A stretch of DNA of 57,766 nt from Candidatus Nomurabacteria bacterium (GCA_023267275.1 JAHFNO010000007.1:1-57766); one strand, 5' to 3'; counted from the first letter of the stretch, positions 1,245 through 55,613 are shown. Program-made: numbers and translations. Notes: generated by a model not told the origin, from the sequence alone.

Positions 1245-1272
1245 AAAGCAAAAACCAAACAGCAAAAAGCAA
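1245..1272. repeat. heptamer array; 20 nt identical to 1751-1770
   Basis: aaagcaa aaaccaa acagcaa aaagcaa; caaaaaccaaacagcaaaaa occurs at 1249-1268 and 1751-1770. Confidence 0.7.
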
Positions 1273-1391
1273 TTCTTTCAGTATCCCCAGATTTGCCGTT
1301 TCCTCTGTTGCATGGTCTAGAATATTGATATAATAAGAGCGAAAGGTATTTTTATGTGCATCATTATTAATTAGGGTGCTAATTTAAATGT

Positions 1392-1628
1392 ATGATGAAA
1401 GGTTGTGGAATGCATAAGCTTGCTGGTGCGTTGGTTATTATTGGCGGACTCAACTGGGGTCTTGTTGGTATCGGAATGCTCATGAAGAGCAACTGGGACG
1501 TAGTAAACCTTGTTCTTGGTAGTTGGCCAATGGCAGAAGCGATTGTATACATCCTTGTTGGTGTTGCAACAGTTATGATGCTTATGGGTTGTAAGTGTGA
1601 GAAGTGCAAGGCAGGCGGAGCAATGTAG
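1392..1628 (+). CDS. DUF378-family small membrane protein
   Basis: LVIIGGLNWGLVG and IVYILVG motifs typical of DUF378. Confidence 0.85.
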   Translation: MMKGCGMHKLAGALVIIGGLNWGLVGIGMLMKSNWDVVNLVLGSWPMAEAIVYILVGVATVMMLMGCKCEKCKAGGAM

Positions 1629-1656
1629 TCTCGAGGACTCATTTCTTGTATCTCTC

Positions 1657-1693
1657 GAAAACCCCGATTTTGCGTAGCAAAATCGGGGTTTTC
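1657..1693. terminator. long hairpin, probable terminator
   Basis: gaaaaccccgattttgc-gta-gcaaaatcggggttttc. Confidence 0.7.
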
Positions 1694-1745
1694 AAATGCC
1701 TCTTTTTGTGGTAAATTGGGCTAGTATTTGTGTTTGCATTTGCCT

Positions 1746-1773
1746 AACACCAAAAACCAAACAGCAAAAACCA
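1746..1773. repeat. heptamer array upstream of GT2 start
   Basis: aacacca aaaacca aacagca aaaacca. Confidence 0.75.
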
Positions 1774-1780
1774 CCCTTGT

Positions 1781-3028: not shown

Positions 3029-3115
3029 AAAATCACTAAAACAATAAACATGAAAACATTAAAACAATAATTAAAATAAAAACTGTTCCCTTATCACTAA
3101 TCCCTTAGCCCTAAT

Positions 3116-5188: not shown

Positions 5189-5201
5189 GGATTTAAATAA
5201 T

Positions 5202-5314
5202 AATTTTTAATTTCAAATTTTTAATTTTATAAATAATACATTAATATCTGAATATTTTAATATTAATTCATTTGGATATTGTTTAAAAATTAAAAATGGA
5301 AAAATTATAAAATT
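5202..5314. repeat. AT-rich self-inverted octamer-arm element, copy 1
   Basis: Reverse complement is nearly identical to 6157-6277. Confidence 0.85.
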
Positions 5315-5323: not shown

Positions 5324-6103
5324 CTATGCTGTCGCTACGCGCACAAACTCAACAAGACTAGCACCTCCTTGTTTCAAAAGAGTTTCTACCGTGATGTCTG
5401 GATTCTTAATAAAAGATTGATCAAGAAGTGTACGCTCTTTGAAGAATGTGTCGATTTTTCCAGCAAGCATTTTTTCTTTGATTTCAGCTGGCTTGTCTGA
5501 GTTTGCAACTTCTTCAGCGAAGAGCGCTTTTACTTTTTCTGATGCGTCAGCTGGTACATCTGCGCGAGTTTTGTATTCAGGATTCATTGCTGCGATATGC
5601 ATTGCAATATCCTTTGCGAGCGCTTCAGTACCACCAGAGAGGCCTACAAGAACGCCTACGCGACCATCGTGTACATATGAGCCTACGATTGGAGCAGAGA
5701 CTGTTGCAATCTCTCCAAGCTGAATGTTCTCACCGAGTTTTTGAATAGCAGAACCGATAAGGTCTGGGGCAGCTTTTTCAGCTTCCTCTTTTCCTTTTTC
5801 GAGCGCCATAGTTGCGAGAGTGTCAGCGAGAGTAGTGAAGTCGCTGTTTTTTGCAACGAAGTCTGTCTCACAGCGGAGAACAAGCAAGAGACCCATGCCA
5901 TCTTTCTGTGCTTTTGCTACAGCACCTGCAGTAGCTTCACGATCAGATTTTTTAGCTGCGATTTCAGTTGATTTCTTTTTCAAGATGAGAAGCGCTTTTT
6001 CTTTATCGCCATCTGCCTCTTCAAGAGCTTTTTTACACTGCATAACTGAAACGCCAGTAGCGTCTCGCAATTCTTTTACTTGTTCTGTGGTGATTGTTGC
6101 CAT
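5324..6103 (-). CDS. tsf: elongation factor Ts
   Basis: VKELRDATG..MQCKKAL, CETDFVA, AMHIAA motifs; downstream of rpsB. Confidence 0.98.
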   Translation of the reverse strand: MATITTEQVKELRDATGVSVMQCKKALEEADGDKEKALLILKKKSTEIAAKKSDREATAGAVAKAQKDGMGLLLVLRCETDFVAKNSDFTTLADTLATMALEKGKEEAEKAAPDLIGSAIQKLGENIQLGEIATVSAPIVGSYVHDGRVGVLVGLSGGTEALAKDIAMHIAAMNPEYKTRADVPADASEKVKALFAEEVANSDKPAEIKEKMLAGKIDTFFKERTLLDQSFIKNPDITVETLLKQGGASLVEFVRVATA

Positions 6104-6156
6104 AATTTTTTAATTATATAATTTTTCTTTTAAATAAGAAATACAAAGCACTAGAT

Positions 6157-6277
6157 AATTTTATAATTTTTCCATTTTTAATTTTTAAACAATATCCAAA
6201 TACTAAAATGAATTACTATTTATAACATTCAGATATTAATTATTATTTACAAAATTAAAAATTTGAAATTAAAAATT
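6157..6277. repeat. AT-rich self-inverted octamer-arm element, copy 2
   Basis: aattttataatttttccatttttaatttttaaacaatatccaaat...aaaattaaaaatttgaaattaaaaatt; inverted relative to copy 1. Confidence 0.85.
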
Positions 6278-6976: not shown

Positions 6977-6983
6977 AAATAAA

Positions 6984-7015
6984 CTAGGTTCTAGGTGCTA
7001 GGTTTTAGGTGCTAG
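6984..7015. repeat. heptamer array next to rpsB start
   Basis: ctaggtt ctaggtg ctaggtt ttaggtg ctag. Confidence 0.8.
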
Positions 7016-7105: not shown

Positions 7106-7179
7106 AATTAAGAATTATTAATTAGGAATTAAAAATAGAATGCATTTCATTCCTAATTCTCAATTCCTCATTCCTAATT
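7106..7179. repeat. inverted heptamer arm pair with no gene, in rpsB leader
   Basis: aattaag aattatt aattagg aattaaa ... attccta attctca attcctc attccta att. Confidence 0.8.
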
Positions 7180-9912: not shown

Positions 9913-9957
9913 TATTTTGAATTTCCTAAAGCCTAGCGCCTAATTATCTAATTTTTC

Positions 9958-11010: not shown

Positions 11011-11109
11011 AAGTCTATAGACTCTAGTCTTTAGTCTATAGAGTGTATGCAAATAATAAGACTTTGTATTTATTACTAGAGACTAAAGACTGTAGACTAA
11101 AGACTAATT
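11011..11109. repeat. gene-less inverted heptamer cassette matching the four-helix-bundle gene flanks
   Basis: tagtctt/tagtcta left arm and actagag/actaaag right arm; 11083-11107 is the exact reverse complement of 47406-47430. Confidence 0.9.
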
Positions 11110-14711: not shown

Positions 14712-16809
14712 ATTACAATCTGAATATAAGCCAGCCGGCGATCAGCCGAATGCTATCAAAGGCTTGGTAGAAGGTCTTGATCAGGGTTTGCGTAAGCAAA
14801 CCCTCTTGGGCGTGACTGGCTCTGGAAAGACATTCACCATGGCAAACGTTATTGCCGAGCACAACAAGCCCACACTCGTGATTGCCCACAACAAAACACT
14901 CGCCGCTCAACTCGCACAAGAATATCGAGAGTTTTTTCCCGATGCTGCCGTGCATTACTTTGTTTCTTATTACGACTTCTATCAACCAGAAGCATATTTG
15001 CCGACGAGCGATACCTATATTGAAAAAGATGCATCGATCAACGAAGAAATCGATCGTCTTCGTCATGCTTCGACACAGGCACTGCTCATTCGCCGTGATG
15101 TGATTATTGTTGCGTCGGTCTCATGTATTTACGGTTTGGGTTCACCAGAAGATTACAAGGAACAAAATCTGCAAATTTCTGTCGGAACAAAAATTCAAAA
15201 AATAGAATTGATGCGCAAGCTTATCGGCAATCATTTTGAACGTACCAATGCCGATGTGGGTAGTGCGCAGTTTCGCGCGGTCGGAAATCGTGTTGATGTC
15301 GTGCCAGTATCGGAGACATACATGTATCAGATATTTTTTGAAGGCGACACAATCTCTCGCATTGCAGTTGTAGATCCCGTATCATCAAAAATTCTTGAAG
15401 AAGTGCAAGATATTTTTCTTTTTCCAGCAAAGCACTTTATGACAAACGAGAGTCAGAAAGCAAAAGCCATTAAATCGATTCAAGCTGAACTCAAAACACA
15501 ACTCGCAAAATTTGAAAAAGAAGGAAAACTTCTTGAAGCACAACGTTTGAAACGCCGTACCACATACGATCTCGCCATGATTAAAGAGATTGGGTATTGT
15601 AACGGTATTGAAAACTACTCTCGGCATCTTTCAGGAAAGAAACCGGGTGAAGCGCCAGAAACATTGCTTTCCTATTTTCCGCACAAGGCCGATGGTACAC
15701 CAGACTTTTTGACAGTTATTGATGAATCGCACGTCACTGTGCCACAACTCGGCGGTATGTTTGCTGGTGATCAATCTCGAAAGAAAACACTTATTGAATT
15801 CGGTTTTCGGTTGCCATCTGCCGCTGACAACCGTCCGTTGAAATATCCAGAATTTGAAGAGCGAGTTGGGCAAGTGATTTACACTACGGCAACTCCATCA
15901 GAGTATGAACGCAAGGAAAGCGAAAAAATAGTTGAACAGATCATTCGTCCAACAGGACTCATCGATCCAGAAATAATTTTGCGTCCGATTTTAGAATCTA
16001 ACACCAAACACCAAACACCTAACACCACGAGTTATCCCGGGCAGATTCAGGACTTCATCGCTGAAACAGAAAAAACAATTGCGCGTGGTTTTCGCGTGAT
16101 CGCGACTACGCTCACAAAAAAAATGGCCGAGGATCTTTCTGTGTATTTGAAAGACAAAAAAATCAAAGCCGAATATTTGCATAGCGATATTAAAACCATC
16201 GAACGTATTCAGATTCTTACGCAGTTCCGTAGGGGAGAGTTCGATGTCATCGTGGGGGTCAACTTACTCCGCGAAGGTCTCGATCTTCCGGAAGTAGCAC
16301 TCATTGGAATTCTTGATGCGGACAAGGAAGGATTTTTGCGTTCTGAGACATCACTCATCCAGACAATCGGTCGTGCAGCCCGCAACTCGGAAGGACGAGT
16401 TATTCTTTATGCCGATAAACTCACCGGAAGTATGGAGCGAGCAATCGGCGAAACAAATCGTCGCCGCACTATCCAGCTCGAATATAACAAAAAGCACGGC
16501 ATTACTCCAAAAACTATCTTGAAACAAATCAAAGATATTACGGAGCAGATGGAGTCGCGTCATGCAAAAGCTGTAAACAGCGAGCTTGATCTTGATATTG
16601 AACTCTTTAAAAAGGGTGTTAAGGCTGGAAAAGTAGGGAAGAGTAAACTCTCAACGCTTTCAGATGAAGATCGCGATAAGGCAGTGTATGAAAAAATAAT
16701 TAAGATAAAGGAAAAAGAAATGAATCACGCAGTAAAAGAACTCGACTTTGAGACCGCAGCTATTTTGCGCGATGAGATAGTCGTACTGCGGGAGAGAATG
16801 ACAAAATAA
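14692..16809 (+). CDS. uvrB: excinuclease ABC subunit B
   Basis: LLGVTGSGKT, FVSYYDFYQPEAY, DESH, C-terminal LDFETAAILRD UVR domain; start 14683 or 14692. Confidence 0.98.
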   Translation: MEKKVFKLQSEYKPAGDQPNAIKGLVEGLDQGLRKQTLLGVTGSGKTFTMANVIAEHNKPTLVIAHNKTLAAQLAQEYREFFPDAAVHYFVSYYDFYQPEAYLPTSDTYIEKDASINEEIDRLRHASTQALLIRRDVIIVASVSCIYGLGSPEDYKEQNLQISVGTKIQKIELMRKLIGNHFERTNADVGSAQFRAVGNRVDVVPVSETYMYQIFFEGDTISRIAVVDPVSSKILEEVQDIFLFPAKHFMTNESQKAKAIKSIQAELKTQLAKFEKEGKLLEAQRLKRRTTYDLAMIKEIGYCNGIENYSRHLSGKKPGEAPETLLSYFPHKADGTPDFLTVIDESHVTVPQLGGMFAGDQSRKKTLIEFGFRLPSAADNRPLKYPEFEERVGQVIYTTATPSEYERKESEKIVEQIIRPTGLIDPEIILRPILESNTKHQTPNTTSYPGQIQDFIAETEKTIARGFRVIATTLTKKMAEDLSVYLKDKKIKAEYLHSDIKTIERIQILTQFRRGEFDVIVGVNLLREGLDLPEVALIGILDADKEGFLRSETSLIQTIGRAARNSEGRVILYADKLTGSMERAIGETNRRRTIQLEYNKKHGITPKTILKQIKDITEQMESRHAKAVNSELDLDIELFKKGVKAGKVGKSKLSTLSDEDRDKAVYEKIIKIKEKEMNHAVKELDFETAAILRDEIVVLRERMTK
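16000..16027. repeat. heptamer array in frame in uvrB
   Basis: aacacca aacacca aacacct aacacca, encoding NTKHQTPNT. Confidence 0.85.
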
Positions 16810-20453: not shown

Positions 20454-21761
20454 GTGAAAAGTCAAGAATTAGCTAAAGCCAAATTGCCAGATGTACCCGG
20501 TGTATATTTCTTCCGAAAAGGGAAGGATATTTTGTATATTGGCAAAGCTACTTCGCTCCGTGATCGTACGAAGAGCTATTTTGCCAAGGATTTAATTGCA
20601 ACTCGTGGTCCACTCATCGTGGATATGGTGTTTAAGGCTGACACTGTGAAGTGGCAAGAGACAGACTCTGTACTCGAAGCGCTCATTCTTGAAGCCAATC
20701 TTATCAAGCAACATCAGCCGTACTACAATACAAAAGAAAAAGACGATAAGAGTTGGAACTATGTTGTGATAACTAAGGATGACCTCCCGAAAGTATTGGT
20801 TATACGAGGCAAGGATTTATTTTCCAAACACCAAACACCAAACACCAAAAACCATTCAGCTATCTTCGGTCCTTTTACAAGCGGACTACAGCTCAAAGAA
20901 GCGCTCAAGATTGTGCGCAAGATTTTTCCGTTTGTGGATGCGAGTTCAGCCAAGCGCGACAATTATGAATTTTATCGTCAATTAGGTTTAACTCCTGATT
21001 TGGGTTCGGGCGTCGGTGTCATCCCGGACTTGATCCGGGATCCACGAAAAATACGAATGGATTCCGGCTCGGAGGCCGGAATGACAAGGGCTATGGATGT
21101 GTACAAGAGAAATTTAAAAAACATCAAACTTTTTTTTGAAGGAAAGAAAAAAGATATTGTAAAAAATTTGAATGGGGAAATGAAGCTCGCGGCCAAGGCG
21201 TGCCGCTTTGAAGAAGCGGCGCGCCTGCGCAATCAGATTTTTGCGCTTGAGCATATCAATGACATAGCTTTGCTTAAGAATGACCTAGCACCAAACACCA
21301 AACACCAAAAACCAGGCTTCCGTATTGAAGCATATGACGTCGCACACATGAGTGGAAAAAACATGGTGGGTGTGATGACTGTGCTTGAGGATGGCGAAAT
21401 CAATAACAAAGAATATCGTTCATTCAATATCAAAGGATTTACTGATGCCAATGATACCGGCGCACTTGAAGAAATGCTCTCTCGGCGTTTTCGTCATGTT
21501 GAATGGGGAATGCCAGACCTCGTGGTAGCGGACGGTGGTGAAGCGCAACTGCGCGTGGCAAAACAAGTCTTGAAGCGATACCAACTCGAAATTCCTGTGG
21601 TGTCAGTAGTAAAAGACGAACGACACAAACCAAAAGATATTTTGGGAGATGAAGTCATGGCGAAAAAAATGAAAAAGGAAATCCTACTCGGCAACAGCGA
21701 GGCACACCGCTTTTCAATCAAATTGCATAAAAACAAACGCAACAAGAACTTTCTCAAGTAG
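20454..21761 (+). CDS. uvrC: excinuclease ABC subunit C (short; no C-terminal HhH)
   Basis: PGVY..LYIGKA GIY-YIG, FEEAARLRNQI UVR, RIEAYDVAH and PDLVVADGG RNase H-like domain; GTG start inferred. Confidence 0.93.
   Translation: MKSQELAKAKLPDVPGVYFFRKGKDILYIGKATSLRDRTKSYFAKDLIATRGPLIVDMVFKADTVKWQETDSVLEALILEANLIKQHQPYYNTKEKDDKSWNYVVITKDDLPKVLVIRGKDLFSKHQTPNTKNHSAIFGPFTSGLQLKEALKIVRKIFPFVDASSAKRDNYEFYRQLGLTPDLGSGVGVIPDLIRDPRKIRMDSGSEAGMTRAMDVYKRNLKNIKLFFEGKKKDIVKNLNGEMKLAAKACRFEEAARLRNQIFALEHINDIALLKNDLAPNTKHQKPGFRIEAYDVAHMSGKNMVGVMTVLEDGEINNKEYRSFNIKGFTDANDTGALEEMLSRRFRHVEWGMPDLVVADGGEAQLRVAKQVLKRYQLEIPVVSVVKDERHKPKDILGDEVMAKKMKKEILLGNSEAHRFSIKLHKNKRNKNFLK
20824..20854. repeat. heptamer array in frame in uvrC
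   Basis: ccaaaca x3, ccaaaaa, cca. Confidence 0.85.
21018..21085. repeat. GTCATCC-type element, copy 3, in frame in uvrC
   Basis: gtcatcccggacttgatccgggatcc...ggattccggctcggaggccggaatgac, encoding VIPDLIRDPRKIRMDSGSEAGMT. Confidence 0.9.
21284..21314. repeat. second heptamer array in frame in uvrC
   Basis: cctagca ccaaaca ccaaaca ccaaaaa cca. Confidence 0.85.
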
Positions 21762-31116: not shown

Positions 31117-31147
31117 ATTCTTAATTCCTAATTCTTAATTCCTAATT
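31117..31147. repeat. heptamer array upstream of gdhA
   Basis: attctta attccta attctta attccta att. Confidence 0.8.
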
Positions 31148-32377: not shown

Positions 32378-32410
32378 CAGAAAATTTTGATTACAAAATT
32401 TTCTGCAGGG

Positions 32411-32438
32411 TATAGGGGCTAGGTTCTAGGGTCTAGCT
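32411..32438. repeat. heptamer array downstream of gdhA
   Basis: tataggg gctaggt tctaggg tctagct. Confidence 0.7.
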
Positions 32439-47399: not shown

Positions 47400-47430
47400 T
47401 AGTCGTTAGTCTTTAGTCTACAGTCTTTAG
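47400..47430. repeat. left heptamer arm of four-helix-bundle cassette
   Basis: tagtcgt tagtctt tagtcta cagtctt tag. Confidence 0.9.
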
Positions 47431-47432
47431 AA

Positions 47433-47801
47433 ATGCCAGAACAAACAAAAATAAACTCATTTAAAGACTTGATTGTTTGGCAAAAAAGCTTCCAGCTTGT
47501 TAGGCAGATATATAAAATAACTGAAAAAATACCATCTACCGAAATGTATGGATTGAAATCTCAGATGCAGAGGTCATCAGTTTCTATTCCTTCAAACATT
47601 GCAGAGGGGTTTTACCGAAGAACACCAAAAGATTTTAAACAATTTTTACATATAGCATTTGGTTCAACCGCTGAACTTGAGACACAGTTGCTGTTGTGTA
47701 AAGAGCTGTATTCGATTAATATCGAAGAAGAAGGAAAATTGCTTACAGAAGTTAGTAAAATGCTCAGAGTATTTATTACTAAACTAGAGACTAAAGACTA
47801 A
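47433..47801 (+). CDS. four helix bundle protein (23S rRNA IVP / TIGR02436-like)
   Basis: SFKDLIVWQKS...EMYGLKSQMQRSSVSIPSNIAEG..R...F..IAFGSTAELETQL. Confidence 0.95.
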   Translation: MPEQTKINSFKDLIVWQKSFQLVRQIYKITEKIPSTEMYGLKSQMQRSSVSIPSNIAEGFYRRTPKDFKQFLHIAFGSTAELETQLLLCKELYSINIEEEGKLLTEVSKMLRVFITKLETKD

Positions 47802-47817
47802 GCACTATAAACTATGA
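47783..47817. repeat. right heptamer arm; contains the cassette stop codon and the leuS ATG
   Basis: actagag actaaag actaagc actataa actatga. Confidence 0.9.
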
Positions 47818-50800
47818 ATAATTACGATCATACGAAAATAGAAAAAAAATGGCAGAAGGAATGGGATACAAAAAAAACCTACGCAACTGCATCCTCTAAA
47901 AAAGCGAAAGGTAAAAAACCTTTTTATGTACTTGATATGTTTCCGTATCCATCTGGTGCAGGTCTTCATGTAGGTCATCCTCGCGGGTATATTGGTAGTG
48001 ATGTGATTGCGCGAAAAATGCGTATGGAGGGATACAATGTATTGCATCCAATGGGTTATGACGCTTTTGGTCTGCCTGCAGAACAATACGCAATCCAAAA
48101 CAATATTCATCCGCGCAAAGCTGTAGAACAAAATGTAAAAACATTTGAGCACCAGCTTTCTATCCTTGGTCTCTCATATGACTGGTCACGAAAAATAAAT
48201 ACAACTGATCCAGAGTATTACAAATGGACACAATGGATTTTTGAAAAAATATATGAATCCTGGTTTGATACTGAGAAAAATTCTGCACGACCAATAGCCG
48301 AACTTGTTGCACTATTTGAAAAGCGTGGCAACGTCGGTATTTCTGCGTGTTCATCAAATACTCAATTGTTTTCTGCAAAGGAGTGGCTGCTGATGAGCGA
48401 GATGGAAAAGCAAAATACACTCATGCAGTATCGCCTCGCATATGAAGGATATTCAGAGGTGAATTGGTGTCCTGAACTCGGCACGGTGCTCGCCAACGAC
48501 GAAATCGTTGATGGTCCAAATGGTCCAGTATCAGAACGTGGCGGATATCCTGTAGAAAAGAAAACAATGCGCCAATGGTTTATGCGTATTACTGCATATG
48601 CGGATCGACTTATTTCTGGTCTCGACAATCTCGACTGGCCAAGCCACATCAAAGAAATTCAAAAAAATTGGATCGGAAAAAGTGAAGGAGCAGAAATCGA
48701 GTTTAAAGTTGAAAGTGTAAAGTCGAAAGTCGGTACAATCAAGGTATTTACGACACGAGCGGATACTCTATTTGGTGTGACGTATGTTGTGCTCGCGCCA
48801 GAACATCCATTAATCTCAAATCTCAAATCTCAAATCTCAAATCTGACTGAAGTTGAACAATACCTTGCAGAAGCAAAAAAGAAAGACGACATTATTCGTG
48901 CATCTACCGACAAGGAAAAGAGTGGTGTTGAGCTGAAAGGCATTCGCGCAATCAATCCGGCAAACGGCGAAGAGGTGCCAGTATGGGTAGCAGATTATGT
49001 GTTGCCACAATATGGCACGGGAGCAGTAATGGCCGTACCTGCGCACGACGAACGAGATTTTGCATTTGCGAAGAAATATAATTTGCCGATGAAGCAGGTT
49101 GTTAAGCCTGTGTTTATTGATCCTATAAATCCACCACGATTCGGACTTAGTGAAGTTGTTCGTAATACTGTTTATATTTTTTTAAAAAACAAACAAACAG
49201 GTTTATACGCATTATTGCGCTGGCATGGAACTCTTGAAGGTATTACTACTGTGGTAATGGGCGGACAAGAAGAAGGAGAGACTCGCGAAGAGGCTTGTCT
49301 TAAAGAAATTAAGGAAGAAACTGGTTTAGTGAATGCTTGTTTTGTAAAAGAAATGCCATGGGTATCAGATGCCAAATATTGTGCTTCGCATAAAAATCAA
49401 AATCGGTTATCTATTTCATATGCATATTTATATGAAATTGATTCACTTGATGGGCAAATATTAGTTTCAGAAGAAGAAAAAAAGTTAGCTACACTTTATT
49501 GGGGTACAGCAGAAGAATTAGCTAAAAAAGTTCCTGAGCATCAAAAATATTTATGGGCACAGTTGTGTGTAGTGTCTCCAGTTTTAAACGATGGTTTATT
49601 AATGAATTCTGGAAAATTTGACGGACTGTCATCAGAAGAAGCTCGAGAAAAAATCACTCAATCCGTCGGAGGAAGAATTGTTACGAAGTTTAAACTTCGC
49701 GATGCTATTTTTGCACGTCAGCGATATTGGGGCGAGCCGATTCCACTTTTTACCAAGGATGGAATTATTCACGAAGTCGCAGAGAAAAAATTACCACTCG
49801 AACTACCGAATGTAAAAAGTTATGAGCCGACTGGCACCGGAGAGAGCCCACTTGCCGGAGTTGCTTCATGGGTAAAAGCTGGATACGAGACAAATACAAT
49901 GCCGGGTTGGGCGGGAAGTTCTTGGTATTTCTTGCGCTATGCCGATCCAAAAAATAAAAAAGCTTTTGCCGATAAAAATGAACTCGATTATTGGTTCGAC
50001 AAAAAGAATCAGGGAGGAGTAGATGTGTATGTGGGTGGAGCGGAACATTCTACCGGACACTTGCTCTATTCGCGTTTTTGGCATCAATTTCTTTTTGATA
50101 TGGGATTTGTTCCAACACCAGAACCATTTCAAATGCTTCGAAATCAAGGAATGATTTTGGCTTCCGATGGACGCAAAATGTCAAAGCGATGGGGAAATGT
50201 AATCAATCCTGACGATATTGTAAAAACGTATGGAGCAGACACGCTTCGTTTGTATGAAATGTTTATTGGACCATTTGATTCGAGTTTGCCATGGCAGACC
50301 GATAGTATTATCGGTCCACGACGTTTTATTGAACGTGTTTGGAAAATGGGGGCGCGTGTCCTCGAAACAAAATCAAAAACTACAAGCGCTGATGCAGAGC
50401 GTGCAATTCATTTTGCTATCAAAAAAGTAAGTGAAGATATTGCAAGCTTTGGTTTCAACACGGCAGTGTCTGCAATGATGATTTGTTTGAATGAAATGGA
50501 AAAAGGGGAAACCATCTCGATAGCTGATTTCAAAAAGTTTTTGCAATTGCTTGCACCGTTTGCGCCATATGTTTCTGAAGAACTCTGGCACGAAATCTCG
50601 AATCTTGAATCTCGAAACTCAAATCTTCAGATACAAGATACAAGAAATGAGATACAAGTTTCAAGCATTCATCTTTCTGGTTGGCCAATGTTTGATCCCG
50701 CAAAACTTGTTTCAGATACTATGACAATAGTTGTTTCGGTAAACGGTAAACCACGCGAACATCTTACTGTTGCTCGAACCGCTACGCAAAAGGATATTGA

Positions 50801-50903
50801 GGACATGGCACGTCAATCAGAAAAGGTGCAAACATTTTTGCAGGGAGTAGAACCAAAGCGGGTGATTTATGTACCAGAGAAATTAATTAATTTTGTGCTG
50901 TAA
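47814..50903 (+). CDS. leuS: leucine--tRNA ligase with inserted NUDIX domain
   Basis: MFPYPSGAGLHVGH, CP1 FTTRADT/GTGAVMAVPAHDERD, RQRYWGEPIP, KMSKR. Confidence 0.98.
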   Translation: MNNYDHTKIEKKWQKEWDTKKTYATASSKKAKGKKPFYVLDMFPYPSGAGLHVGHPRGYIGSDVIARKMRMEGYNVLHPMGYDAFGLPAEQYAIQNNIHPRKAVEQNVKTFEHQLSILGLSYDWSRKINTTDPEYYKWTQWIFEKIYESWFDTEKNSARPIAELVALFEKRGNVGISACSSNTQLFSAKEWLLMSEMEKQNTLMQYRLAYEGYSEVNWCPELGTVLANDEIVDGPNGPVSERGGYPVEKKTMRQWFMRITAYADRLISGLDNLDWPSHIKEIQKNWIGKSEGAEIEFKVESVKSKVGTIKVFTTRADTLFGVTYVVLAPEHPLISNLKSQISNLTEVEQYLAEAKKKDDIIRASTDKEKSGVELKGIRAINPANGEEVPVWVADYVLPQYGTGAVMAVPAHDERDFAFAKKYNLPMKQVVKPVFIDPINPPRFGLSEVVRNTVYIFLKNKQTGLYALLRWHGTLEGITTVVMGGQEEGETREEACLKEIKEETGLVNACFVKEMPWVSDAKYCASHKNQNRLSISYAYLYEIDSLDGQILVSEEEKKLATLYWGTAEELAKKVPEHQKYLWAQLCVVSPVLNDGLLMNSGKFDGLSSEEAREKITQSVGGRIVTKFKLRDAIFARQRYWGEPIPLFTKDGIIHEVAEKKLPLELPNVKSYEPTGTGESPLAGVASWVKAGYETNTMPGWAGSSWYFLRYADPKNKKAFADKNELDYWFDKKNQGGVDVYVGGAEHSTGHLLYSRFWHQFLFDMGFVPTPEPFQMLRNQGMILASDGRKMSKRWGNVINPDDIVKTYGADTLRLYEMFIGPFDSSLPWQTDSIIGPRRFIERVWKMGARVLETKSKTTSADAERAIHFAIKKVSEDIASFGFNTAVSAMMICLNEMEKGETISIADFKKFLQLLAPFAPYVSEELWHEISNLESRNSNLQIQDTRNEIQVSSIHLSGWPMFDPAKLVSDTMTIVVSVNGKPREHLTVARTATQKDIEDMARQSEKVQTFLQGVEPKRVIYVPEKLINFVL
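48704..48731. repeat. heptamer array in frame in leuS
   Basis: taaagtt gaaagtg taaagtc gaaagtc, encoding KVESVKSKV. Confidence 0.75.
48812..48846. repeat. heptamer array in frame in leuS
   Basis: aatctca x4 plus aatctga, encoding ISNLKSQISNL. Confidence 0.9.
50594..50665. repeat. inverted heptamer arm pair in frame in leuS
   Basis: aatctcg aatcttg aatctcg aaactca aatcttc | agataca agataca agaaatg agataca agtttca ag. Confidence 0.85.
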
Positions 50904-50910
50904 TGAATTT

Positions 50911-50984
50911 GTCATTCCCGGCTCCGACCGGGAATCCAGTCTAATTTAATTCAAACCTGGATCCTGAATCAAGTTCAGGATGAC
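50911..50984. repeat. GTCAT-type element, copy 5 (hybrid arms)
   Basis: gtcattcccggctccgaccgggaatcc...ggatcctgaatcaagttcaggatgac. Confidence 0.9.
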
Positions 50985-50996
50985 ACAACCCAAAAA

Positions 50997-52673
50997 ATGA
51001 TACGTAAATTACTCAGATTAATAAACCGAAGAGAAGACGAAGGTGGTATGCATCAAGCAGCCATTCTTCTTGGTGTTTTTTCATTGATTTCTCAGCTCAT
51101 TGGTCTCTGGCGTGATCGAATGCTCGCACATACTATTGGCCCTGGACCATTGCTTGATGTGTATTATTCTGCATTTCGTATTCCGGATTTTATTTATCTC
51201 TCCATTGCCTCACTTGCTTCCATTACAGTACTCATGCCGTTTTTGATTGATCACATGAATAGCAACGGCAAGGATTCTGCGCGGAAATTTTTCAACGACG
51301 TGCTCTCCGGATTTTTTCTTTTGCTCACACTCGTTTCGATAGCCGTATATTTTATGATGCCACGCTTGGCTCAGTATATTGCGCCAGGATTTTCTACTCT
51401 GCAATTGCACGAGCTTGTGGGTGTGAGTCGCATTATGTTGCTCTCTCCGATTTTTATGGGTCTCTCCAACATGATTGGAACTGTCACTCAGCTCATGCGC
51501 AAGTTTGTTGTGTTTTCTTTGTCTCCCATTTTTTACAATCTGGGAATTGTATTCGGTATTCTCTTTTTGTATCCGAAATACGGCGTGTATGGTCTTGCGA
51601 TCGGTGTGGCACTTGGAGCATTGATGCATTTGCTCATCCAAATTCCTACAATAGTCAAAGCTGGATTTACTCCGAAGCTTGCAGCTCGTCTTGAACATGC
51701 AACGCTTCGCCAAGTTGTCTCGCTTTCACTTCCACGCACACTTGGTCTTTCGATGAATAGCATTGCACTTATCGTGATTCTTGCGATGGCATCCAAACTT
51801 TCTTCTGGGTCAATTTCTATTTTCAACTTTTCGTACAACCTTGAAACCACGCCGGTCGGTATCATTGGAATATCGTATGCCGTTGCATCGTTTCCACTTC
51901 TATCAGAAGCATTTGCACGAGGGGACATGGATAAATGGCAGAAGAGTATTATTTCTGCATTGCGACAAATTATTTTTTGGTCGCTACCACTTTCCGCACT
52001 TTTTATTGTGGTACGTGCGCAGATTGTACGCGTGACACTCGGCTCCGGCGCATTTTCTTGGAATGATACCAAGCTTACCGCAGCAGCATTTGCATTGTTT
52101 ACACTCGGCCTCATTGCACAAAATATGATTCTCGTTTCGGTGCGCGCATTTTATGCAGCACACAATACAAAGACCCCGCTCATCATCAATGCTTTTTGTT
52201 CTATCGTCATTGTGGCACTCGCATATTTTCTTCTCCATGCATTTGAAACTGTTCCAATGTTCCGCTACTTCATTGAGTCGCTACTTCGTGTACCAGACAT
52301 ACCACAGACTGCCGTACTCATGCTTCCACTCGCATACTCAATCGGTACATTGCTCAACGCATGGCTCCATTGGGTGGATTTGCGACGACAATATCTCACA
52401 TCAGTCGGTAGCTTGCCTCGCACATTGTTTGAAGCAGTCGCAGCGTCATTTGCGGTTGGAATTACTGCATACGCCTCGCTCAATGCACTTTCCTATGTGT
52501 TTAGTATGAATACATTTTTTGGAGTGCTTATGCAGGGAGGCATCGCCTGTATTTTGGGAACACTTGCTGGTCTTATTTTGCTCTATCTTTTGAAGAGTGA
52601 ATCATTGTTTGAAATATTGAATGCTGCTCGCAAAAAATTCTGGAAAGTGGATTTTGTAGAACCAGAAAAATAA
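50997..52673 (+). CDS. murJ: lipid II flippase MurJ (MviN)
   Basis: SQLIGLWRDRMLA, YYSAFRIPD, PIFYN, RAFYA..NTKTP; many TM helices. Confidence 0.92.
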   Translation: MIRKLLRLINRREDEGGMHQAAILLGVFSLISQLIGLWRDRMLAHTIGPGPLLDVYYSAFRIPDFIYLSIASLASITVLMPFLIDHMNSNGKDSARKFFNDVLSGFFLLLTLVSIAVYFMMPRLAQYIAPGFSTLQLHELVGVSRIMLLSPIFMGLSNMIGTVTQLMRKFVVFSLSPIFYNLGIVFGILFLYPKYGVYGLAIGVALGALMHLLIQIPTIVKAGFTPKLAARLEHATLRQVVSLSLPRTLGLSMNSIALIVILAMASKLSSGSISIFNFSYNLETTPVGIIGISYAVASFPLLSEAFARGDMDKWQKSIISALRQIIFWSLPLSALFIVVRAQIVRVTLGSGAFSWNDTKLTAAAFALFTLGLIAQNMILVSVRAFYAAHNTKTPLIINAFCSIVIVALAYFLLHAFETVPMFRYFIESLLRVPDIPQTAVLMLPLAYSIGTLLNAWLHWVDLRRQYLTSVGSLPRTLFEAVAASFAVGITAYASLNALSYVFSMNTFFGVLMQGGIACILGTLAGLILLYLLKSESLFEILNAARKKFWKVDFVEPEK

Positions 52674-52761
52674 GAACACAGCTTTCTGGTTTTTGGTTTT
52701 AGTTTGAAATAAAAAAGACCTCTGTTTTAAAGAGATCTTTCGTTCTTAAGCGATTATGAAA

Positions 52762-53379
52762 TTACATTTTATTCACATAAACTAATGCACGATTATTCCA
52801 ACTGAATGTATCACCCCCATTCATTTTTGAAATTGTTTTTGTACCGGTTGTAATTTTGCCATTTTCTTTTGACAACCATCTTACGTATTTACCTGCGTTA
52901 TCTTCATATATGGTTCCCCAAAATATTATATATACAAGTTTAGATACTACTCCTGAGGGTTCACTAAACCAGCAATCTTGTATTAAGTGGGGATAAGCCA
53001 GAAGATAATCCAAAAATGTCGCGTTTGCAGTTGGTTCATCTTTTAATGCTTCCATCAAGTCGATACCATAGGAAAACTTATTTTCATTCTGCACTCTTGT
53101 TACATAAGTATCAAAATCTTCCGGATGAAAAATTACATCTCCAAAGTGATTATGGCTCACTATTTTGGAACCATTTTCACAAAAAGGGGTTTCATGGGTT
53201 GGGATTAAGTGCATAATTTTTTCAGTTTGTTCAATGAATCTGATAATTTTCATTGCCAGTTCATTGTTTTTTGAATCAATCACTTTTTGTAGGTGCATAT
53301 ACATGCCACCAGCTTTTTCAAATTTTTTGGCGAACTCAAGCCACTGACCGAGTCCTTTGCTCACATCATCTTTTTTCAT
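52762..53379 (-). CDS. hypothetical protein (orphan)
   Basis: 205-aa AT-rich ORF with promoter-like TTGCAT-16-TATAAT upstream and hairpin downstream. Confidence 0.7.
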   Translation of the reverse strand: MKKDDVSKGLGQWLEFAKKFEKAGGMYMHLQKVIDSKNNELAMKIIRFIEQTEKIMHLIPTHETPFCENGSKIVSHNHFGDVIFHPEDFDTYVTRVQNENKFSYGIDLMEALKDEPTANATFLDYLLAYPHLIQDCWFSEPSGVVSKLVYIIFWGTIYEDNAGKYVRWLSKENGKITTGTKTISKMNGGDTFSWNNRALVYVNKM

Positions 53380-53511
53380 GACGCATACAGTATTAAATTG
53401 TTAGGGAACCAATATTAGTTCTCGATTCGTATTATACAACTAATTATTAAAAATGCAAGCGAAAATAATGCTTTATAAAACAAGCATTTTCTGCTAGGAT
53501 GGCAGTATCTT

Positions 53512-55341
53512 ATGGATTTAAAGCATATTCGAAACTTTAGTATTATCGCGCATATCGACCACGGCAAGTCTACGCTTGCCGATAGAATGCTTGAGGTTAC
53601 GGGCACGATCGAGGCACGTAAAATGCGTGACCAAGTGCTCGACAACATGGAACTCGAACGTGAACGTGGTATTACGATCAAAATGCAACCCGTCAGAATG
53701 GAATACCATTCTGACGGGAGTCAAAAGTCAAAAGTCGAAAGTGGAAAGTATCAACTCAATCTGATAGACACGCCAGGGCACATAGATTTTTCTTACGAGG
53801 TCTCAAGAGCTCTGAAGGCCGTAGAAGGTTCTATTTTGCTTGTAGACTCCACACAGGGCGTGCAAGCACAAACACTCACCACACTCGAAGCAGCGCGTGC
53901 AGAAGGGCTCATTATTGTGCCAGCTGTTTCAAAAATCGATTCTCCGCTTGCTCGACCAGAAGAAGTAAAATTGGAAATTGCGACGTTGCTCGATATCGAT
54001 CCCGATATGATTCTTTCTGTTTCCGGAAAAACAGGTGAAGGTGTTGCCGAACTTTTGCAGGCCGTGATCGAACGCATTCCTCCACCAGCCATGGCAAAGG
54101 AACCAGGACTCAAAGCACTTGTGTTTGATTTTAAATATGACGATCATCGCGGAGTTATTGTGTACGTTCGTATTTTTGAAGGAAGCGTGAGAAAAAATGA
54201 TCGACTGCTTTTTTCGATTGCGAAAGAAAAATTCATTGCACTTGAAGTGGGCATTTTTACTCCGGGAGAAGAAGCACGTGATTCGTTGAATGCTGGAGAG
54301 ATTGGCTACATTGTGACTGGCGTCAAACAACCAGGTATCGCTTCTGTGGGAGACACTATCACTACTGAAAAAAATCCGTTGCCACCACTTCCTGGATATG
54401 CAAATCCACGACCAGTGGTATGGGCATCTATTTATCCTGAAAGTCAGGACGATTTTCCAACACTCAAAATGGCACTTAGTCGTTTAAAACTTTCGGACTC
54501 AGCCTTTACGTTTGAAGAAGAATCTTCTGGTGCACTCGGTCGCGGATTCCGTGCCGGCTTTCTTGGAATGCTTCATCTTGAAATCATTACCGAACGTTTG
54601 CGTCGTGAATATCGACTCGAACTTATTGTGACTACACCATCGATTACATACATGGTGACAAAAAGAAATGGCGGAGTTGAAACAATTTATTCTCCACATT
54701 TGTTTCCCGATGATAGTCAGATTATTTCTGTAGAAGAACCATGGGCAAGCATGCATATCATTACGCCAGAGCGATATATAGGAGTACTCATGCCGTTTTT
54801 ATATGAACATGAAGGGGAAGTCGGCACAACTGAATCATTCGGTGAAGGACGTTCTTCTATTTCCGTGATGATGCCTCTTCGCGAAATGATGCGTGGATTT
54901 TTTGATGAACTTAAAAGTATTACGAGTGGTTATGCTTCTATCACTTACACTATTGCCGGACTTCGCCCTGCGTCAGTGACTCGTCTAGATATTGTGATTG
55001 CCGATGAAGTGGTACCTGCGTTTACACGTGTGATTGCTCGTCGTCGTGCGCAAGAAGAAGCCGATGAAGCGACAGAAAAATTGCAAAAGGTGCTGCCTCG
55101 CCAACAATTTGAAATGAAAGTGCAAGGTGTGGCGCTCGGAAAAATTCTTTCGTCAAAAACGATCAAAGCATTTCGAAAGGACGTGCTCATGCATGGAAGT
55201 AAAATGGTGGGAGGTGGTGACGTGTCTCGAAAAAAGAAACTTTTGGAAAAACAGAAAAAAGGAAAGGCACGCATGCGCAATTCCGGAAAAGTGAATATTC
55301 CACACGATGTGTTTCTGAAGATGATGCAGAGAGGGGAATAG
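53512..55341 (+). CDS. lepA: elongation factor 4
   Basis: IRNFSIIAHIDHGKSTLADR, DTPGH, GFLGMLHLEI, KKKLLEKQKKGK. Confidence 0.98.
   Translation: MDLKHIRNFSIIAHIDHGKSTLADRMLEVTGTIEARKMRDQVLDNMELERERGITIKMQPVRMEYHSDGSQKSKVESGKYQLNLIDTPGHIDFSYEVSRALKAVEGSILLVDSTQGVQAQTLTTLEAARAEGLIIVPAVSKIDSPLARPEEVKLEIATLLDIDPDMILSVSGKTGEGVAELLQAVIERIPPPAMAKEPGLKALVFDFKYDDHRGVIVYVRIFEGSVRKNDRLLFSIAKEKFIALEVGIFTPGEEARDSLNAGEIGYIVTGVKQPGIASVGDTITTEKNPLPPLPGYANPRPVVWASIYPESQDDFPTLKMALSRLKLSDSAFTFEEESSGALGRGFRAGFLGMLHLEIITERLRREYRLELIVTTPSITYMVTKRNGGVETIYSPHLFPDDSQIISVEEPWASMHIITPERYIGVLMPFLYEHEGEVGTTESFGEGRSSISVMMPLREMMRGFFDELKSITSGYASITYTIAGLRPASVTRLDIVIADEVVPAFTRVIARRRAQEEADEATEKLQKVLPRQQFEMKVQGVALGKILSSKTIKAFRKDVLMHGSKMVGGGDVSRKKKLLEKQKKGKARMRNSGKVNIPHDVFLKMMQRGE
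53719..53749. repeat. heptamer array in frame in lepA
   Basis: agtcaaa agtcaaa agtcgaa agtggaa agt, encoding SQKSKVESGK. Confidence 0.8.
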
Positions 55342-55460
55342 TCATTGAACATAAAAACAAAAGAACAATGAGCAAAAAAATGCATACAACGAATCCTCAT
55401 TTGCGTCTCAGACGTAAATGAGGATTTTGTTCGTTGTTCTTGTGTTCCTTGTTCTTTTGT

Positions 55461-55574
55461 CTACTTTGTAAACAAAACTGGCATGTAGAGGGCAATCATC
55501 AAGAGAATGATAAGCACTGAAACGATACCCCAGACAATATTTACTTTTCGGCGGTGTTTTCGTGAAAATAGCAT
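55461..55574 (-). CDS. 37-aa single-pass membrane protein (below the ORF-track cutoff)
   Basis: MLFSRKHRRKVNIVWGIVSVLIILLMIALYMPVLFTK*. Confidence 0.65.
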   Translation of the reverse strand: MLFSRKHRRKVNIVWGIVSVLIILLMIALYMPVLFTK

Positions 55575-55580
55575 ATAAAT

Positions 55581-55613
55581 TACAGGTTCTAGTTGCTAGG
55601 TTCTAGGTTATAG
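55581..55613. repeat. heptamer array upstream of the small ORF
   Basis: tacaggt tctagtt gctaggt tctaggt tatag. Confidence 0.75.

Follow-up and report, generated by a model that had tools for sequence, protein, structure and literature searches.

Short heptamer arrays, present in the genome analysed here both between and within its genes, are probably parts of very small selfish cassettes that make up one family: either their terminal arms or their ORF-less remains. In its full form a cassette comprises a 5′ arm of about 31–33 nt, with five cores of 4–5 nt placed 7 nt apart and separated by variable spacers, a PF05635 gene of about 120 codons, whose product is a four-helix-bundle protein (the 23S rRNA intervening-sequence protein S23p, which is Avd-like), and a 3′ arm in reverse complement to the 5′ arm. 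The element would be of the same kind as the classical rRNA intervening sequences (IVSs). Here it is lodged in the very short spacers that separate protein genes, and its arms also occur in frame within surface loops of proteins. This reading draws on the anatomy of the cassettes, the link between arrays and gene, insertion polymorphisms and turnover between species, each of which is directly documented in the genomes compared.

The window, i.e., the whole stretch of 57,766 nt that was analysed, comes from the genome (G000) of a small groundwater bacterium, and the arrays treated span positions 1245–55613 (Table 1). TRF returns 27 period-7 rows in the window and 262 period-7 arrays genome-wide, against 32, 93 and 124 arrays of periods 6, 8 and 9, respectively. 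A stricter scan of our own detects 86 arrays of period 7 in the genome and 0–16 for the other periods from 5 to 13, while a Markov-2 shuffle leaves it a single period-7 array. The abundance of such arrays in the window, first claimed in a sequence-only reading, is borne out, and so is the claim that they nearly always hold 4–5 units: the usual make-up is 4–5 conserved cores at 7-nt spacing, and among 207 non-redundant arrays 79 have four and 97 have five in-phase cores, the others having two (5 arrays), three (16), six (7) or seven (3), with counts of three or fewer truncated by the detection threshold. Array length has its mode at 30–33 nt (108/262 period-7 TRF arrays) and exceeds 33 nt in 19/262. 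Borders are sharp and flanked by no decayed units, mismatches between units are clustered in 2–3 adjacent columns, and identical internal variants recur in copies at several distant loci. Consensus units are mostly A/T (A 441, T 383, C 192, G 175). A geometric, slippage-type distribution of copy number, one of the outcomes which the sequence-only reading had listed as refuting it, is rejected (chi2 85.6, p 2e-18); the arrays are real and are not slippage microsatellites.

Table 1. Arrays, hairpin elements and the full cassette in the window (positions counted from the first letter of the window)
Position	Strand	Feature	Detection	Comparison or further observation
1245..1272	.	Solo heptamer array (4.0 units) lying between two convergent ORFs	TRF, sequence	
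1746..1773	.	A/C-rich array; 7 nt separate its end from the glycosyltransferase-gene ATG at 1781		Orthologous site in G013 has an array with another unit
3087..3115	.	CTA-type array abutting the ATG at 3116	TRF	
5201..5228	.	A/T-rich array, inverted partner of 6251..6277	TRF	27/27 complementary to its partner, 1022 nt apart; the two flank tsf (5324-6103, -)
6156..6188	.	A/T-rich array, period 7-8, indels	TRF	
6251..6277	.	A/T-rich array, inverted partner of 5201..5228	TRF	
6984..7015	-	Array 7 nt 5′ of the rpsB start (6976, -); CTA-type on the transcript		
7106..7179	.	ORF-less hairpin element: inverted arrays 7106-7136 and 7147-7179, 10-nt loop		Fold -11.6 kcal/mol, z -2.5
9925..9951	+	CTA-type array of only 3-4 units, 6 nt upstream of an ATG (9958)	Below TRF threshold	
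11012..11107	+	ORF-less hairpin element: TAG-type arm 11012-11041, CTA-type arm 11075-11107		33-nt loop, in which a 10-codon remnant ORF begins; takes up the space between a stop (11004) and an ATG (11113); fold -35.8 kcal/mol, z -5.45
16000..16027	+	A/C-rich array, in frame, uvrB aa 440-449	TRF	
20824..20854	+	A/C-rich array, in frame, uvrC aa 132-142	TRF	Common to G013; loop length similar in four other congeners
21289..21314	+	A/C-rich array, in frame, uvrC aa 287-295	TRF	Common to G013; +2 aa vs four other congeners
31117..31147	+	CTA-type array, 6 nt upstream of the Glu/Leu/Phe/Val dehydrogenase-gene ATG (31154)		Unfolded (fold prediction)
32407..32436	+	TAG-type array, 30 nt past the stop at 32377, 5 nt before the ATG at 32442		
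47400..47430	+	Cassette 5′ arm, TAG every 7 nt	TRF, sequence	Begins 2 nt past the stop of the upstream gene; ends 2 nt from the cassette ATG
47433..47801	+	Cassette gene, 122-aa PF05635 / TIGR02436 four-helix-bundle protein (23S rRNA IVS protein, Avd-like)		Pfam E 7.8e-37; TIGR02436 E 1.9e-34; PDB 2gsc E 3e-21
47780..47814	+	Cassette 3′ arm, CTA-type, overlapping the ORF end and reaching the leuS ATG at 47814		
48700..48732	+	In-frame 33-nt array in the editing domain of LeuRS, +3 aa vs relatives		Same site in G008: array of the same unit family, opposite orientation
48812..48844	+	Perfect 33-nt array, in frame, LeuRS, no length change		Degenerate copy in G013
50594..50658	+	LeuRS, in-frame pair of inverted arrays side by side (33 + 30 nt)		+18 aa vs five congeners; double array recurs in frame in IleRS (G000:C22)
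52685..52706	+	Weak G/T-rich array, ~2.5 units, after the stop at 52673	Not among TRF rows	
53719..53749	+	31-nt array, in frame, LepA loop	TRF	+8 aa vs 17 other aligned sequences; G013 has two arrays at this site, inverted orientation, +22 aa
55427..55460	.	G/T-rich array beside a terminator-like hairpin, downstream of lepA	TRF	
55584..55613	-	Array 9 nt 5′ of a small-ORF ATG; CTA-type in that orientation		Position before a start depends on whether the 37-aa ORF 55461-55574 (-) is real

The full cassette of the window is sited between a protein gene and leuS, outside rRNA, and its arms pair at 18/20 positions in the best ungapped segment. Two relatives, G001 and G011, are without the whole cassette, and the corresponding stop and ATG are there 6 nt apart. 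The genome holds 8 cassettes (one split over two contig ends, one broken), and every place with a PF05635 gene has arrays at both ends or at the sole assembled end. The 8 cassettes have 8 different units, most array families match one of them, and three large unit families are without a matching cassette in the assembly. Outside this genome, all 28 loci inspected by eye, from more than 20 genomes of the order, carry an array before the ATG and an inverted array at the stop. An automated lag-7 score of at least 9 is attained by 12/34 5′ arms and 16/34 3′ arms, a detector that misses over half of the arms accepted by eye, and five is the commonest core count among the arms so detected. Among 80 loci drawn from many phyla, 30 of the 5′ and 40 of the 3′ flanks have a lag-7 score of at least 10, against 0–1 for control lags 4, 5, 6, 9, 10 and 11, and 4–5 for lag 8. 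Across 35 cassettes, 760 of 868 arm positions are paired in the best stems; the mismatches (18 G-U, 25 A-C, 65 other) include no excess of G-U wobble and thus nothing that points to selection on RNA pairing.

The classical rRNA IVSs, found in the 23S rRNA of Coxiella burnetii and in Leptospira, provide a close parallel. Parts of one report (PMC4990558) describe the Coxiella IVS as having an inverted-repeat stem of 28 bp, which RNase III cuts, and 3–4 tandem heptamers directly 5′ of the S23p ATG; they also note that the Xanthomonas S23p is a homopentamer and that an rRNA IVS with an S23p ORF is regarded as a selfish element. The cassettes share with these IVSs a PF05635 / TIGR02436 ORF, terminal inverted repeats pairing as a stem of ~28–30 bp and, as described for Coxiella, the tandem heptamers just before the ATG. 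Moreover, G053, a relative of the present genome, has a cassette (L049) within its 16S rRNA gene. The window cassette differs in lying between protein-coding genes, and it is accompanied here by solo and paired arrays without an ORF, at a density of roughly 180 per megabase, some arrays being in frame within proteins. Excision by RNase III is predicted here, and the genome encodes two RNase III genes.

The arrays track the PF05635 gene and occur almost only in genomes that have it. G001, which has no PF05635 gene, has no array of at least 26 nt in 400 kb, and G013, the closest relative, yields 8 PF05635 matches, with 83 arrays counted in 338 kb. Within the genus, TAG arrays are found in 7/7 genomes with the gene and 0/8 without it. 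Among 60 relatives the figures are 21/24 and 8/36, three of the latter 8 having 20–22 hits each. In a sample of 300 genomes of the phylum, at least 5 hits are found in 90/176 genomes with the gene and 4/124 without it (at least 2 hits in 15/124 of the latter). Array number, which the sequence-only reading had proposed to compare with the count of four-helix-bundle genes, is indeed correlated with it in this sample (Spearman rho 0.71), but all of these association tests overstate significance because related genomes are kin. Among distant cassette-holding genomes, 4/5 carry 32–255 TAG arrays, against 0–13 for a reversed control pattern.

Of 186 arrays, 137 are intergenic, in a genome that is 88% coding, and arrays often end 0–12 nt upstream of a start codon. 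The other 49 lie within ORFs, in the window among others those of UvrB, UvrC, LeuRS and LepA; in-ORF arrays are absent from the sequence-only reading. Its claim of a polarity at gene boundaries can be upheld in part. Arrays within 40 nt before starts are preferentially A/C-rich (52 vs 25 G/T-rich, p 0.003), as claimed, whereas the expected G/T-rich bias after stops is weak (35 vs 24 A/C-rich, p 0.19), and the polarity does not hold nearly always. When typed arrays are considered, the ratio of CTA to TAG is 24:8 before starts and that of TAG to CTA 14:12 after stops (Fisher p 0.03). Its eight examples before starts all exist, but the one at 9925 is short and the one at 55581 is conditional on a small ORF; three of its four examples after stops are good, the one at 52685 being only a partial array. 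An inverted partner lies within 1.5 kb of 49/186 arrays, compared to 6/186 in a control with random places. Roughly three quarters of the arrays are therefore solo and unable to form a stem.

Turnover of the sites is rapid. At 36 array sites that are orthologous in G013, 22 are without a detected array and 9 have one with a different unit. In-frame insertions are seen in LepA, LeuRS and IleRS, but other in-gene arrays (LeuRS 48812, UvrC 20824) replace a loop with no or nearly no change in length, unlike the outcome of a plain insertion. No clear target-site duplication emerges when empty and filled sites are compared, and PF05635 is not known to have a transposase-like activity. Many dispersed copies share their ends with cassettes, since for most families the units of solo and hairpin arrays match cassette arms. 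A motif at the junction between arm and start codon, found post hoc in the same rows, is present on the inner side of 11/44 typed solo arrays and on the outer side of 0/44 (background 1.9%). Together with the arms on all PF05635 cassettes and the association with the gene, this motif supports the earlier suggestion that solo arrays are arms left from cassettes.

Decay of a cassette may first leave a hairpin pair (two arms around a short loop) and later a solo arm; alternatively, the hairpin and solo derivatives may spread independently, as MITEs do. On the transcript, the arms would pair into a stem of ~30 bp, cleavable by RNase III as in rRNA IVSs. The usual handedness, with the TAG-type arm first and the CTA-type arm last on either strand, would close all three reading frames with stop codons where the element is entered and leave a G-poor, unstructured leader ahead of the next start codon. 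This would suit a genome almost without Shine-Dalgarno sites, so that insertions would be nearly harmless. A homopentameric protein, as in solved relatives, would bind the arm with one protomer per core; such putative binding is plausible, as it fits the modal count of five, and would account for a period of 7 and some five units being kept from phylum to phyla-wide scale despite a free sequence. A resident reverse transcriptase (RT) would be unnecessary for movement.

Small mobile derivatives are familiar from MITEs and REP elements, which are likewise short, dispersed, palindromic and non-coding. The Rickettsia palindromic elements, also short and dispersed, are in some cases found in frame in conserved genes, where they are tolerated as extra loops, and some copies here are similarly placed. 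Unlike all of these, the elements here have arms with an internal period (5 x 7 nt) and exist mostly as single arms, no target-site duplication was seen, and the partner gene encodes no known transposase.

The arrays might instead form a host regulon, serving as mRNA operators through which a pentameric protein would block or tune initiation of translation downstream. TRAP and HutP offer a model: these ring proteins bind spaced triplet repeats in RNA, with cores corresponding to protomers and variable spacers. The modal five cores equal the five chains per entry of the solved homologues (PDB 2gsc and 2rld), a numerical coincidence that would suit a putative binding of this type, and the TAG triplets 7 nt apart are like the HutP site. 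The nearness of many arrays to start codons, the correspondence of most array families to one of the 8 cassettes with their 8 units, and the conservation of period and unit number across phyla while the sequence drifts are also in line with a regulon. We nevertheless consider it unlikely. Core sequences differ between cassettes and sites are not conserved between species; that at most shared sites the closest relative has no detected array or one with a different unit is unlike a conserved regulon, and arrays are also inserted in frame in coding regions and kept in some genomes without the gene. Furthermore, arrays at host starts are mostly CTA-type, the complement of the TAG-type array before the protein's own start, and a single RNA-binding specificity could not recognise the two. 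An effect on initiation of translation, as first suggested, is unsupported: Shine-Dalgarno motifs are hardly used (9% of genes), no structure is predicted for solo arrays, and the sites are not conserved.

That the arrays are ordinary simple-sequence repeats, produced by a slippage that favours 7-nt units and only incidentally near PF05635, is very improbable and already largely refuted. A 2007 study cited in PMC4692102 found heptameric simple-sequence repeats to be over-represented in many bacteria, and a proposed link with polymerase slippage is cited there too; copy number varies between Coxiella strains (PMC4990558), and rare long arrays do exist (more than 10 units in G021). However, the copy-number distribution, the sharp borders and the identical variants at distant loci are not those of slippage products, nor would slippage account for a congener without any array of at least 26 nt in 400 kb, the strong association with the gene or the pairing of arrays as inverted repeats.

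Equally hard to credit is a role as structural signals of the host (terminators, promoters or G-quadruplex DNA), of the sort put forward for the G-rich heptamers of Xanthomonas and Nostoc. The passages of PMC4692102 on these dispersed repeats (GGGAATC in Xanthomonas, GGGGAYT in Nostoc/Anabaena, with tandem heptanucleotides of Calothrix cited) describe period-7 sequences of up to 14 units, G-rich and read as quadruplex formers, mostly intergenic and with many convergent inverted pairs; at 0–50 bp from ORFs the G-rich strand follows stops and the C-rich strand precedes starts. Placement and strand bias near ORFs are thus shared with the arrays here, whose intergenic hairpin pairs also fold well (z -5.45). 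Nevertheless, the units here are diverse, mostly A/T-rich and tied to PF05635 cassettes, they lack the G-tracts from which quadruplexes could form, solo arrays are without predicted structure, arrays are present within genes, and the flanking of every PF05635 gene is left unexplained. The terms S23, 23S, XCC0516 and four-helix do not occur in the main text of PMC4692102.

A retroelement origin, with an Avd-like protein and an RT writing templated heptamer tracts into targets as in diversity-generating retroelements, is already weak and the least credible of all: PF05635 is homologous to the pentameric four-helix-bundle protein Avd (PMC10053308), the genome has three RT genes and such writing would explain the length-keeping loop replacements, but RT tracks arrays weakly (16/25 relatives with RT vs 13/35 without, Fisher p 0.066), G048, G051 and G049 (99–100% complete) have arrays although no RT is found in them, no array occurs in G010 or G012 with their three RT matches each, and the RT genes of the present genome lie elsewhere, none adjoining a cassette.

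Arms and remains of a selfish PF05635 cassette are therefore the reading we favour, and the link between array and cassette may help to explain the commonness of seven-base repeats in bacteria.

In the genome of Candidatus Nomurabacteria bacterium (G000, 1.02 Mb in 33 contigs, the window being contig C30), short heptamer arrays are tied to a small cassette whose PF05635 gene is framed by a TAG-type 5' arm and an inverted, CTA-type 3' arm (see the table). Three DNA sequencing runs, all from a single groundwater metagenome study, contain the window stretch, and no RNA run was found to contain it; the genomes of relatives measure 0.5-0.9 Mb. The nearest solved homologue of the cassette protein is Xanthomonas XCC0516 (2gsc, E 3e-21). 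PDB entries 2gsc and 2rld hold five chains each, and the Xanthomonas protein is described as a homopentamer (PMC4990558) and the PF05635 protein as resembling Avd (PMC10053308). In the congeners G001 and G011, the host genes that flank the window cassette lie 6 nt apart and the cassette is missing. The ten PF05635 matches of G000 amount to eight cassettes, one of which is broken by stop codons and another split across the ends of contigs C23 and C22. Every assembled cassette end carries an array, whose unit differs from cassette to cassette. The genome has two RNase III genes, one of them located immediately upstream of the broken cassette and in the same orientation.

Location of the cassette, of selected arrays and of neighbouring or related genes (bare coordinates refer to the window)
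Feature	Location	Strand	Remark
Cassette gene	47433-47801	+	PF05635/TIGR02436 four-helix-bundle protein, 122 aa
5' arm	47400-47430	+	TAG every 7 nt, precedes cassette gene
3' arm	47780-47814	+	Inverted array after the gene, reaching leuS ATG
Hairpin element	11008-11110		
Weakly folding solo array	6981-7018		
Perfect array in LeuRS	48812-48844		
LeuRS gene	47814-50903		
A/T-rich arrays	5241-5314, 6102-6188		Period 8
Period-21 tandem repeat	46392-46498		Within ORF 46271-46771(-)
Hydrophobic ORF	55461-55574	-	37 aa
RNase III gene beside broken cassette	G000:C21:38365-39378		
IleRS gene	G000:C22:59723-63265		1180 aa
RT genes of G000	C31:46425-47030, C22:67940-68611, C1:22728-23216		
Long TAG-type arrays of relative G021	G021:C2:157981-158088, G021:C1:112763-112835		10 or more units
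Cassette in 16S rRNA gene of relative G053	L049:1366-2853		RF00177, 549 bits

The window holds 27 period-7 rows detected by TRF, and G000 as a whole 262 period-7 arrays; for periods 6, 8 and 9 the counts are 32, 93 and 124. A stricter scan of the genome against shuffled sequence, as the sequence-only reading had suggested, confirms the excess: 86 arrays of period 7 were found, 0-16 at the other periods from 5 to 13, and a single one in a Markov-2 shuffle. The arrays are short and sharply bounded. In 108 of the 262 the length is 30-33 nt, just 19 exceed 33 nt, and at the first base past the array identity to the periodic consensus is already at background (0.2-0.39). Mismatches between units are confined to 2-3 adjacent columns, and an array therefore consists of conserved 4-5-nt cores with variable spacers between them. 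Four or five in-phase cores are the rule (2 cores in 5 arrays, 3 in 16, 4 in 79, 5 in 97, 6 in 7 and 7 in 3; n=207, counts of three or fewer being truncated by the detection threshold), and a geometric fit to the copy numbers is rejected (chi2 85.6, p 2e-18). The arrays are not microsatellite-like. Rare TAG-type arrays of G021 indicate that expansion far past five units is possible. Period 8 replaces period 7 in some cassette arms (the flanks of loci L125, L134, L136 and L137) and in some A/T-rich arrays of the window, which also contains a period-21 repeat (5.1 copies, TRF score 109) unrelated to the heptamer arrays.

The arrays follow the gene. G001 (100 % complete) has no PF05635 match and, in 400 kb, no period-7 array of at least 26 nt, while for the relative G013 the figures are eight matches and, in 338 kb, 83 arrays. 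Counting as a hit four TAGs spaced 7 nt, G000 yields 61 hits, its shuffles 0 and other spacings 0-3. Among 60 relatives, at least two hits occur in 21 of 24 genomes with PF05635 and in 8 of 36 without (Fisher p 8e-7, a value that overstates significance, as gene-array p-values do here, because related genomes are not independent); within the genus, hits are present in all seven carriers and in none of eight non-carriers. The three hitless carriers (G053, G056 and G058) have cassette arms devoid of TAG, and the eight relatives that retain arrays without the gene include three with 20-22 hits. Across 300 genomes of the phylum (at least 90 % complete), at least five hits were found in 90 of 176 carriers versus 4 of 124 non-carriers, and the correlation of arrays with four-helix-bundle gene count, another check proposed from the sequence, gives a Spearman rho of 0.71. 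Distant carriers behave similarly when scored against a reversed control, with 32 hits versus 0 in Thiohalocapsa, 88 versus 0 in Collinsella, 255 versus 13 in Kiritimatiellaeota and 77 versus 13 in Peregrinibacteria; a Cyclobacteriaceae carrier is unremarkable (11 versus 13). An origin of the arrays that depends on reverse transcriptase (RT) was dropped, the association being weak: arrays occur in 16 of 25 relatives with RT and in 13 of 35 without (p 0.066), and several near-complete array-rich genomes give no RT match. None of the three RT genes of G000 adjoins a heptamer cassette. Two of them encode about 390-400 aa, a size typical of the enzymes of diversity-generating retroelements (DGR).

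Cassettes of the same build are found well beyond this genome. Arms on both sides were seen by eye at 28 of 28 loci, which come from over 20 further genomes of the order. A stricter, automated lag-7 score computed locally recovers 5' arms at 12 of 34 loci and 3' arms at 16 of 34, with five as the commonest core count. A species-genome scan supplied 80 further loci from Gammaproteobacteria, Bacteroidota, Clostridia, Actinobacteria, Planctomycetota, Acidobacteriota, Nitrospirota, Elusimicrobiota and several candidate phyla. The lag-7 score reaches at least 10 in 30 of their 5' flanks and 40 of their 3' flanks; lags 4, 5, 6, 9, 10 and 11 do so in 0-1 flanks and lag 8 in 4-5, and by the lag-7 score 30 of the 80 loci are armless. 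Heptamer arms in so many phyla are therefore a general trait of the PF05635 family and no quirk of G000. The relative G053 carries a PF05635 cassette, heptamer arms included, close to the 5' end of a 16S rRNA gene; this cassette is thus a true rRNA intervening sequence (IVS) in a relative, and ties the intergenic cassettes to the classical rRNA intervening sequences.

Besides complete cassettes, the arrays occur in reduced forms. An inverted partner (identity 75 % or more, distance up to 1.5 kb) accompanies 49 of 186 arrays, compared with 6 of 186 at random places. Of these partners, 34 lie at 9-52 nt and define hairpin elements, 2 at 92-98 nt, 5 at 350-410 nt (the cassettes) and 8 at 724-1251 nt; about three quarters of the arrays are solo. 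The hairpin element of the table is predicted to fold at -35.8 kcal/mol (z -5.45). For three of four solo arrays folded, no structure is predicted; the remaining one, also tabulated, folds weakly (-6.5 kcal/mol, z -1.6). The sequence-only reading had offered lone arrays as solo arms left behind by cassettes, and the data support this: a 6-nt motif matching the junction between 5' arm and start codon is kept at the inner side of 11 of 44 typed solo arrays and at the outer side of none of the 44 (background 1.9 %), the motif having been picked post hoc from the rows in which it was counted. The idea that palindromic unit cores would make the two arms recombine like direct repeats, with a solo arm as the product, was dropped, since no enrichment was seen (palindromic 4-mers in 87 of 186 units versus 71.5 expected, 6-mers in 22 versus 17.1; mean self-complement distance 3.67 versus 3.72).

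Identical internal variants recur in array copies at distant loci; arrays are thus copied as units. Of 43 site pairs between G000 and G013, 36 could be compared, the G000 array not being re-found by a simple detector at 7. In G013, no array was detected at 22 of the 36, whereas 5 have an identical or almost identical unit and 9 a different one; unit distance at paired sites averages 1.86, more alike than random pairs (2.87). Turnover is thus fast at the scale of species within one genus. No target-site duplication is clearly readable, the intergenic DNA of G013 being too diverged for comparison; the sole clean empty site, before leuS in G001 and G011, shows an ambiguous 5-nt similarity overlapping the arm. 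Metagenome contigs on 38001-57766 show no difference at the arrays they cover (contigs drop rare variants and are therefore uninformative on polymorphism), and many foreign contigs terminate at the perfect LeuRS array.

Arrays are found in frame in genes for conserved proteins as well. An in-frame array adds 8 aa to LepA, and at the same loop the LepA of G013 carries a pair of arrays in inverted orientation (+22 aa), with none in 17 other aligned sequences. In LeuRS, an in-frame double array adds 18 aa relative to five congeners and recurs in frame in IleRS; the array at 48700 adds 3 aa, the relative G008 having the same unit family there, inverted, and the perfect array at 48812 leaves the length unchanged. 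The two in-frame arrays of UvrC are common to G013, with length changes of -1 and +2 aa. Length-neutral arrays might, at a guess, be older insertions that were later trimmed. LeuRS also has a NUDIX domain inserted at aa 450-578 (Pfam E 1.2e-8), common to G013 and absent in four other congeners. IleRS has an apparent inserted domain of about 200 aa, whose RHG motif looks, by eye, like that of a histidine-phosphatase or phosphoglycerate-mutase fold.

Relative to genes, arrays with at least four cores (n=186) are intergenic in 104 cases, overlap a gene end in 33 and lie inside ORFs in 49 (coding share of G000 88 %, gene calls being a crude greedy ORF set), and many have a start codon 0-12 nt downstream. 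The sequence-only reading had listed arrays at starts and stops with opposite polarity. The listed arrays hold up, save that those at 9925 and 52685 are short and that at 55581 precedes only a 37-aa minus-strand ORF; at 32407 an array is present, but it is TAG-type and just upstream of a start. Before starts the polarity stands (52 A/C-rich versus 25 G/T-rich arrays, p 0.003; 24 CTA-type versus 8 TAG-type), but after stops it is weak (35 G/T-rich versus 24 A/C-rich, p 0.19; 14 TAG-type versus 12 CTA-type). The observation of arrays was sound and their polarity overstated. The 37-aa ORF is hydrophobic, absent from the 60-aa gene set and located in a region that aligns with G013; it may encode a real small membrane protein. 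Upstream regions in G000 are A/T-rich and G-poor, with Shine-Dalgarno (SD)-like motifs at about 9 % of genes, a composition that suggests SD-independent initiation. Displacement of SD motifs by arrays was dropped because there is nothing to displace, such motifs preceding just 77 of 861 array-free and 1 of 79 array-preceded genes. An action of the arrays on translation initiation, as had been proposed, finds no support.

From the observed cassette anatomy, gene-array association, insertions and turnover, a mechanism may be sketched. Since an inverted repeat is identical on both strands, an element of the usual handedness would present its TAG-type arm first and its CTA-type arm last in either insertion orientation. 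Five TAGs spaced 7 nt fall in all three frames, so that translation from an upstream gene would stop at element entry. The exit arm, G-poor and probably unfolded, would fit a genome whose array-free genes so seldom carry an SD-like motif, and the two properties together would account for insertion tolerance and pre-start polarity. The paired arms would be a putative RNase III substrate, by analogy with the Coxiella IVS, whose cleavage by RNase III in vitro is reported in PMC4990558. Stem mismatches comprise 18 G-U, 25 A-C and 65 others. With G-U not in excess, selection on the stems at the RNA level was dropped, and arm pairing, if it has any role, may have it in the DNA. From Proteobacteria to candidate phyla, period 7 and a count of about five cores are retained as the sequence varies freely, and the solved homologues are pentamers. 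On these grounds we tentatively propose, with somewhat less than even confidence, that the PF05635 protein binds its own arm, one protomer per core; the data are consistent with the pentamer idea. More doubtful is the wider proposal that PF05635 proteins would be sequence-specific nucleic-acid-binding rings, each protomer reading one core of a five-fold 7-nt array by a TRAP-like code that co-evolves in each paralogue. Such pairing would drive the spread or upkeep of the mini-elements across phyla, and the long-noted excess of heptamer simple repeats in Xanthomonas, Nostoc, candidate-phyla bacteria and Collinsella would be their footprint rather than a product of slippage or G-quadruplexes.

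Heptamer repeats are reported to be oddly over-represented in bacterial genomes, and we know of no accepted cause. PF05635, a large family whose function is not known, is met in rRNA intervening sequences and related to the DGR protein Avd. In its gene family, its terminal inverted repeats and the tandem heptamers upstream of its ORF, the window cassette agrees with an rRNA IVS, from which it differs in place of insertion. The dispersed heptamer repeats of Xanthomonas and Nostoc resemble those described here in placement, pairing and strand bias; they were interpreted as quadruplex formers, and the available text of that paper contains no occurrence of S23, 23S, XCC0516 or four-helix (PMC4692102). 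In the literature searched, which excluded subscription journals and supplements, no general link between heptamers and PF05635 is stated; the Coxiella study alone mentions heptamers beside the S23p gene, in one species (PMC4990558). Cassettes and arrays are thus a known kind of element in a new form, with a reach well past the window. Heptamer excess and PF05635 are tied together by inverted arrays flanking the gene in many phyla, by array counts that track gene counts in 300 genomes and by the usual five cores, which equal the pentamer of solved homologues. The elements likely represent a new class, mobile or selfish and very small, which can extend essential proteins by extra loops even in genomes that are among the smallest known.
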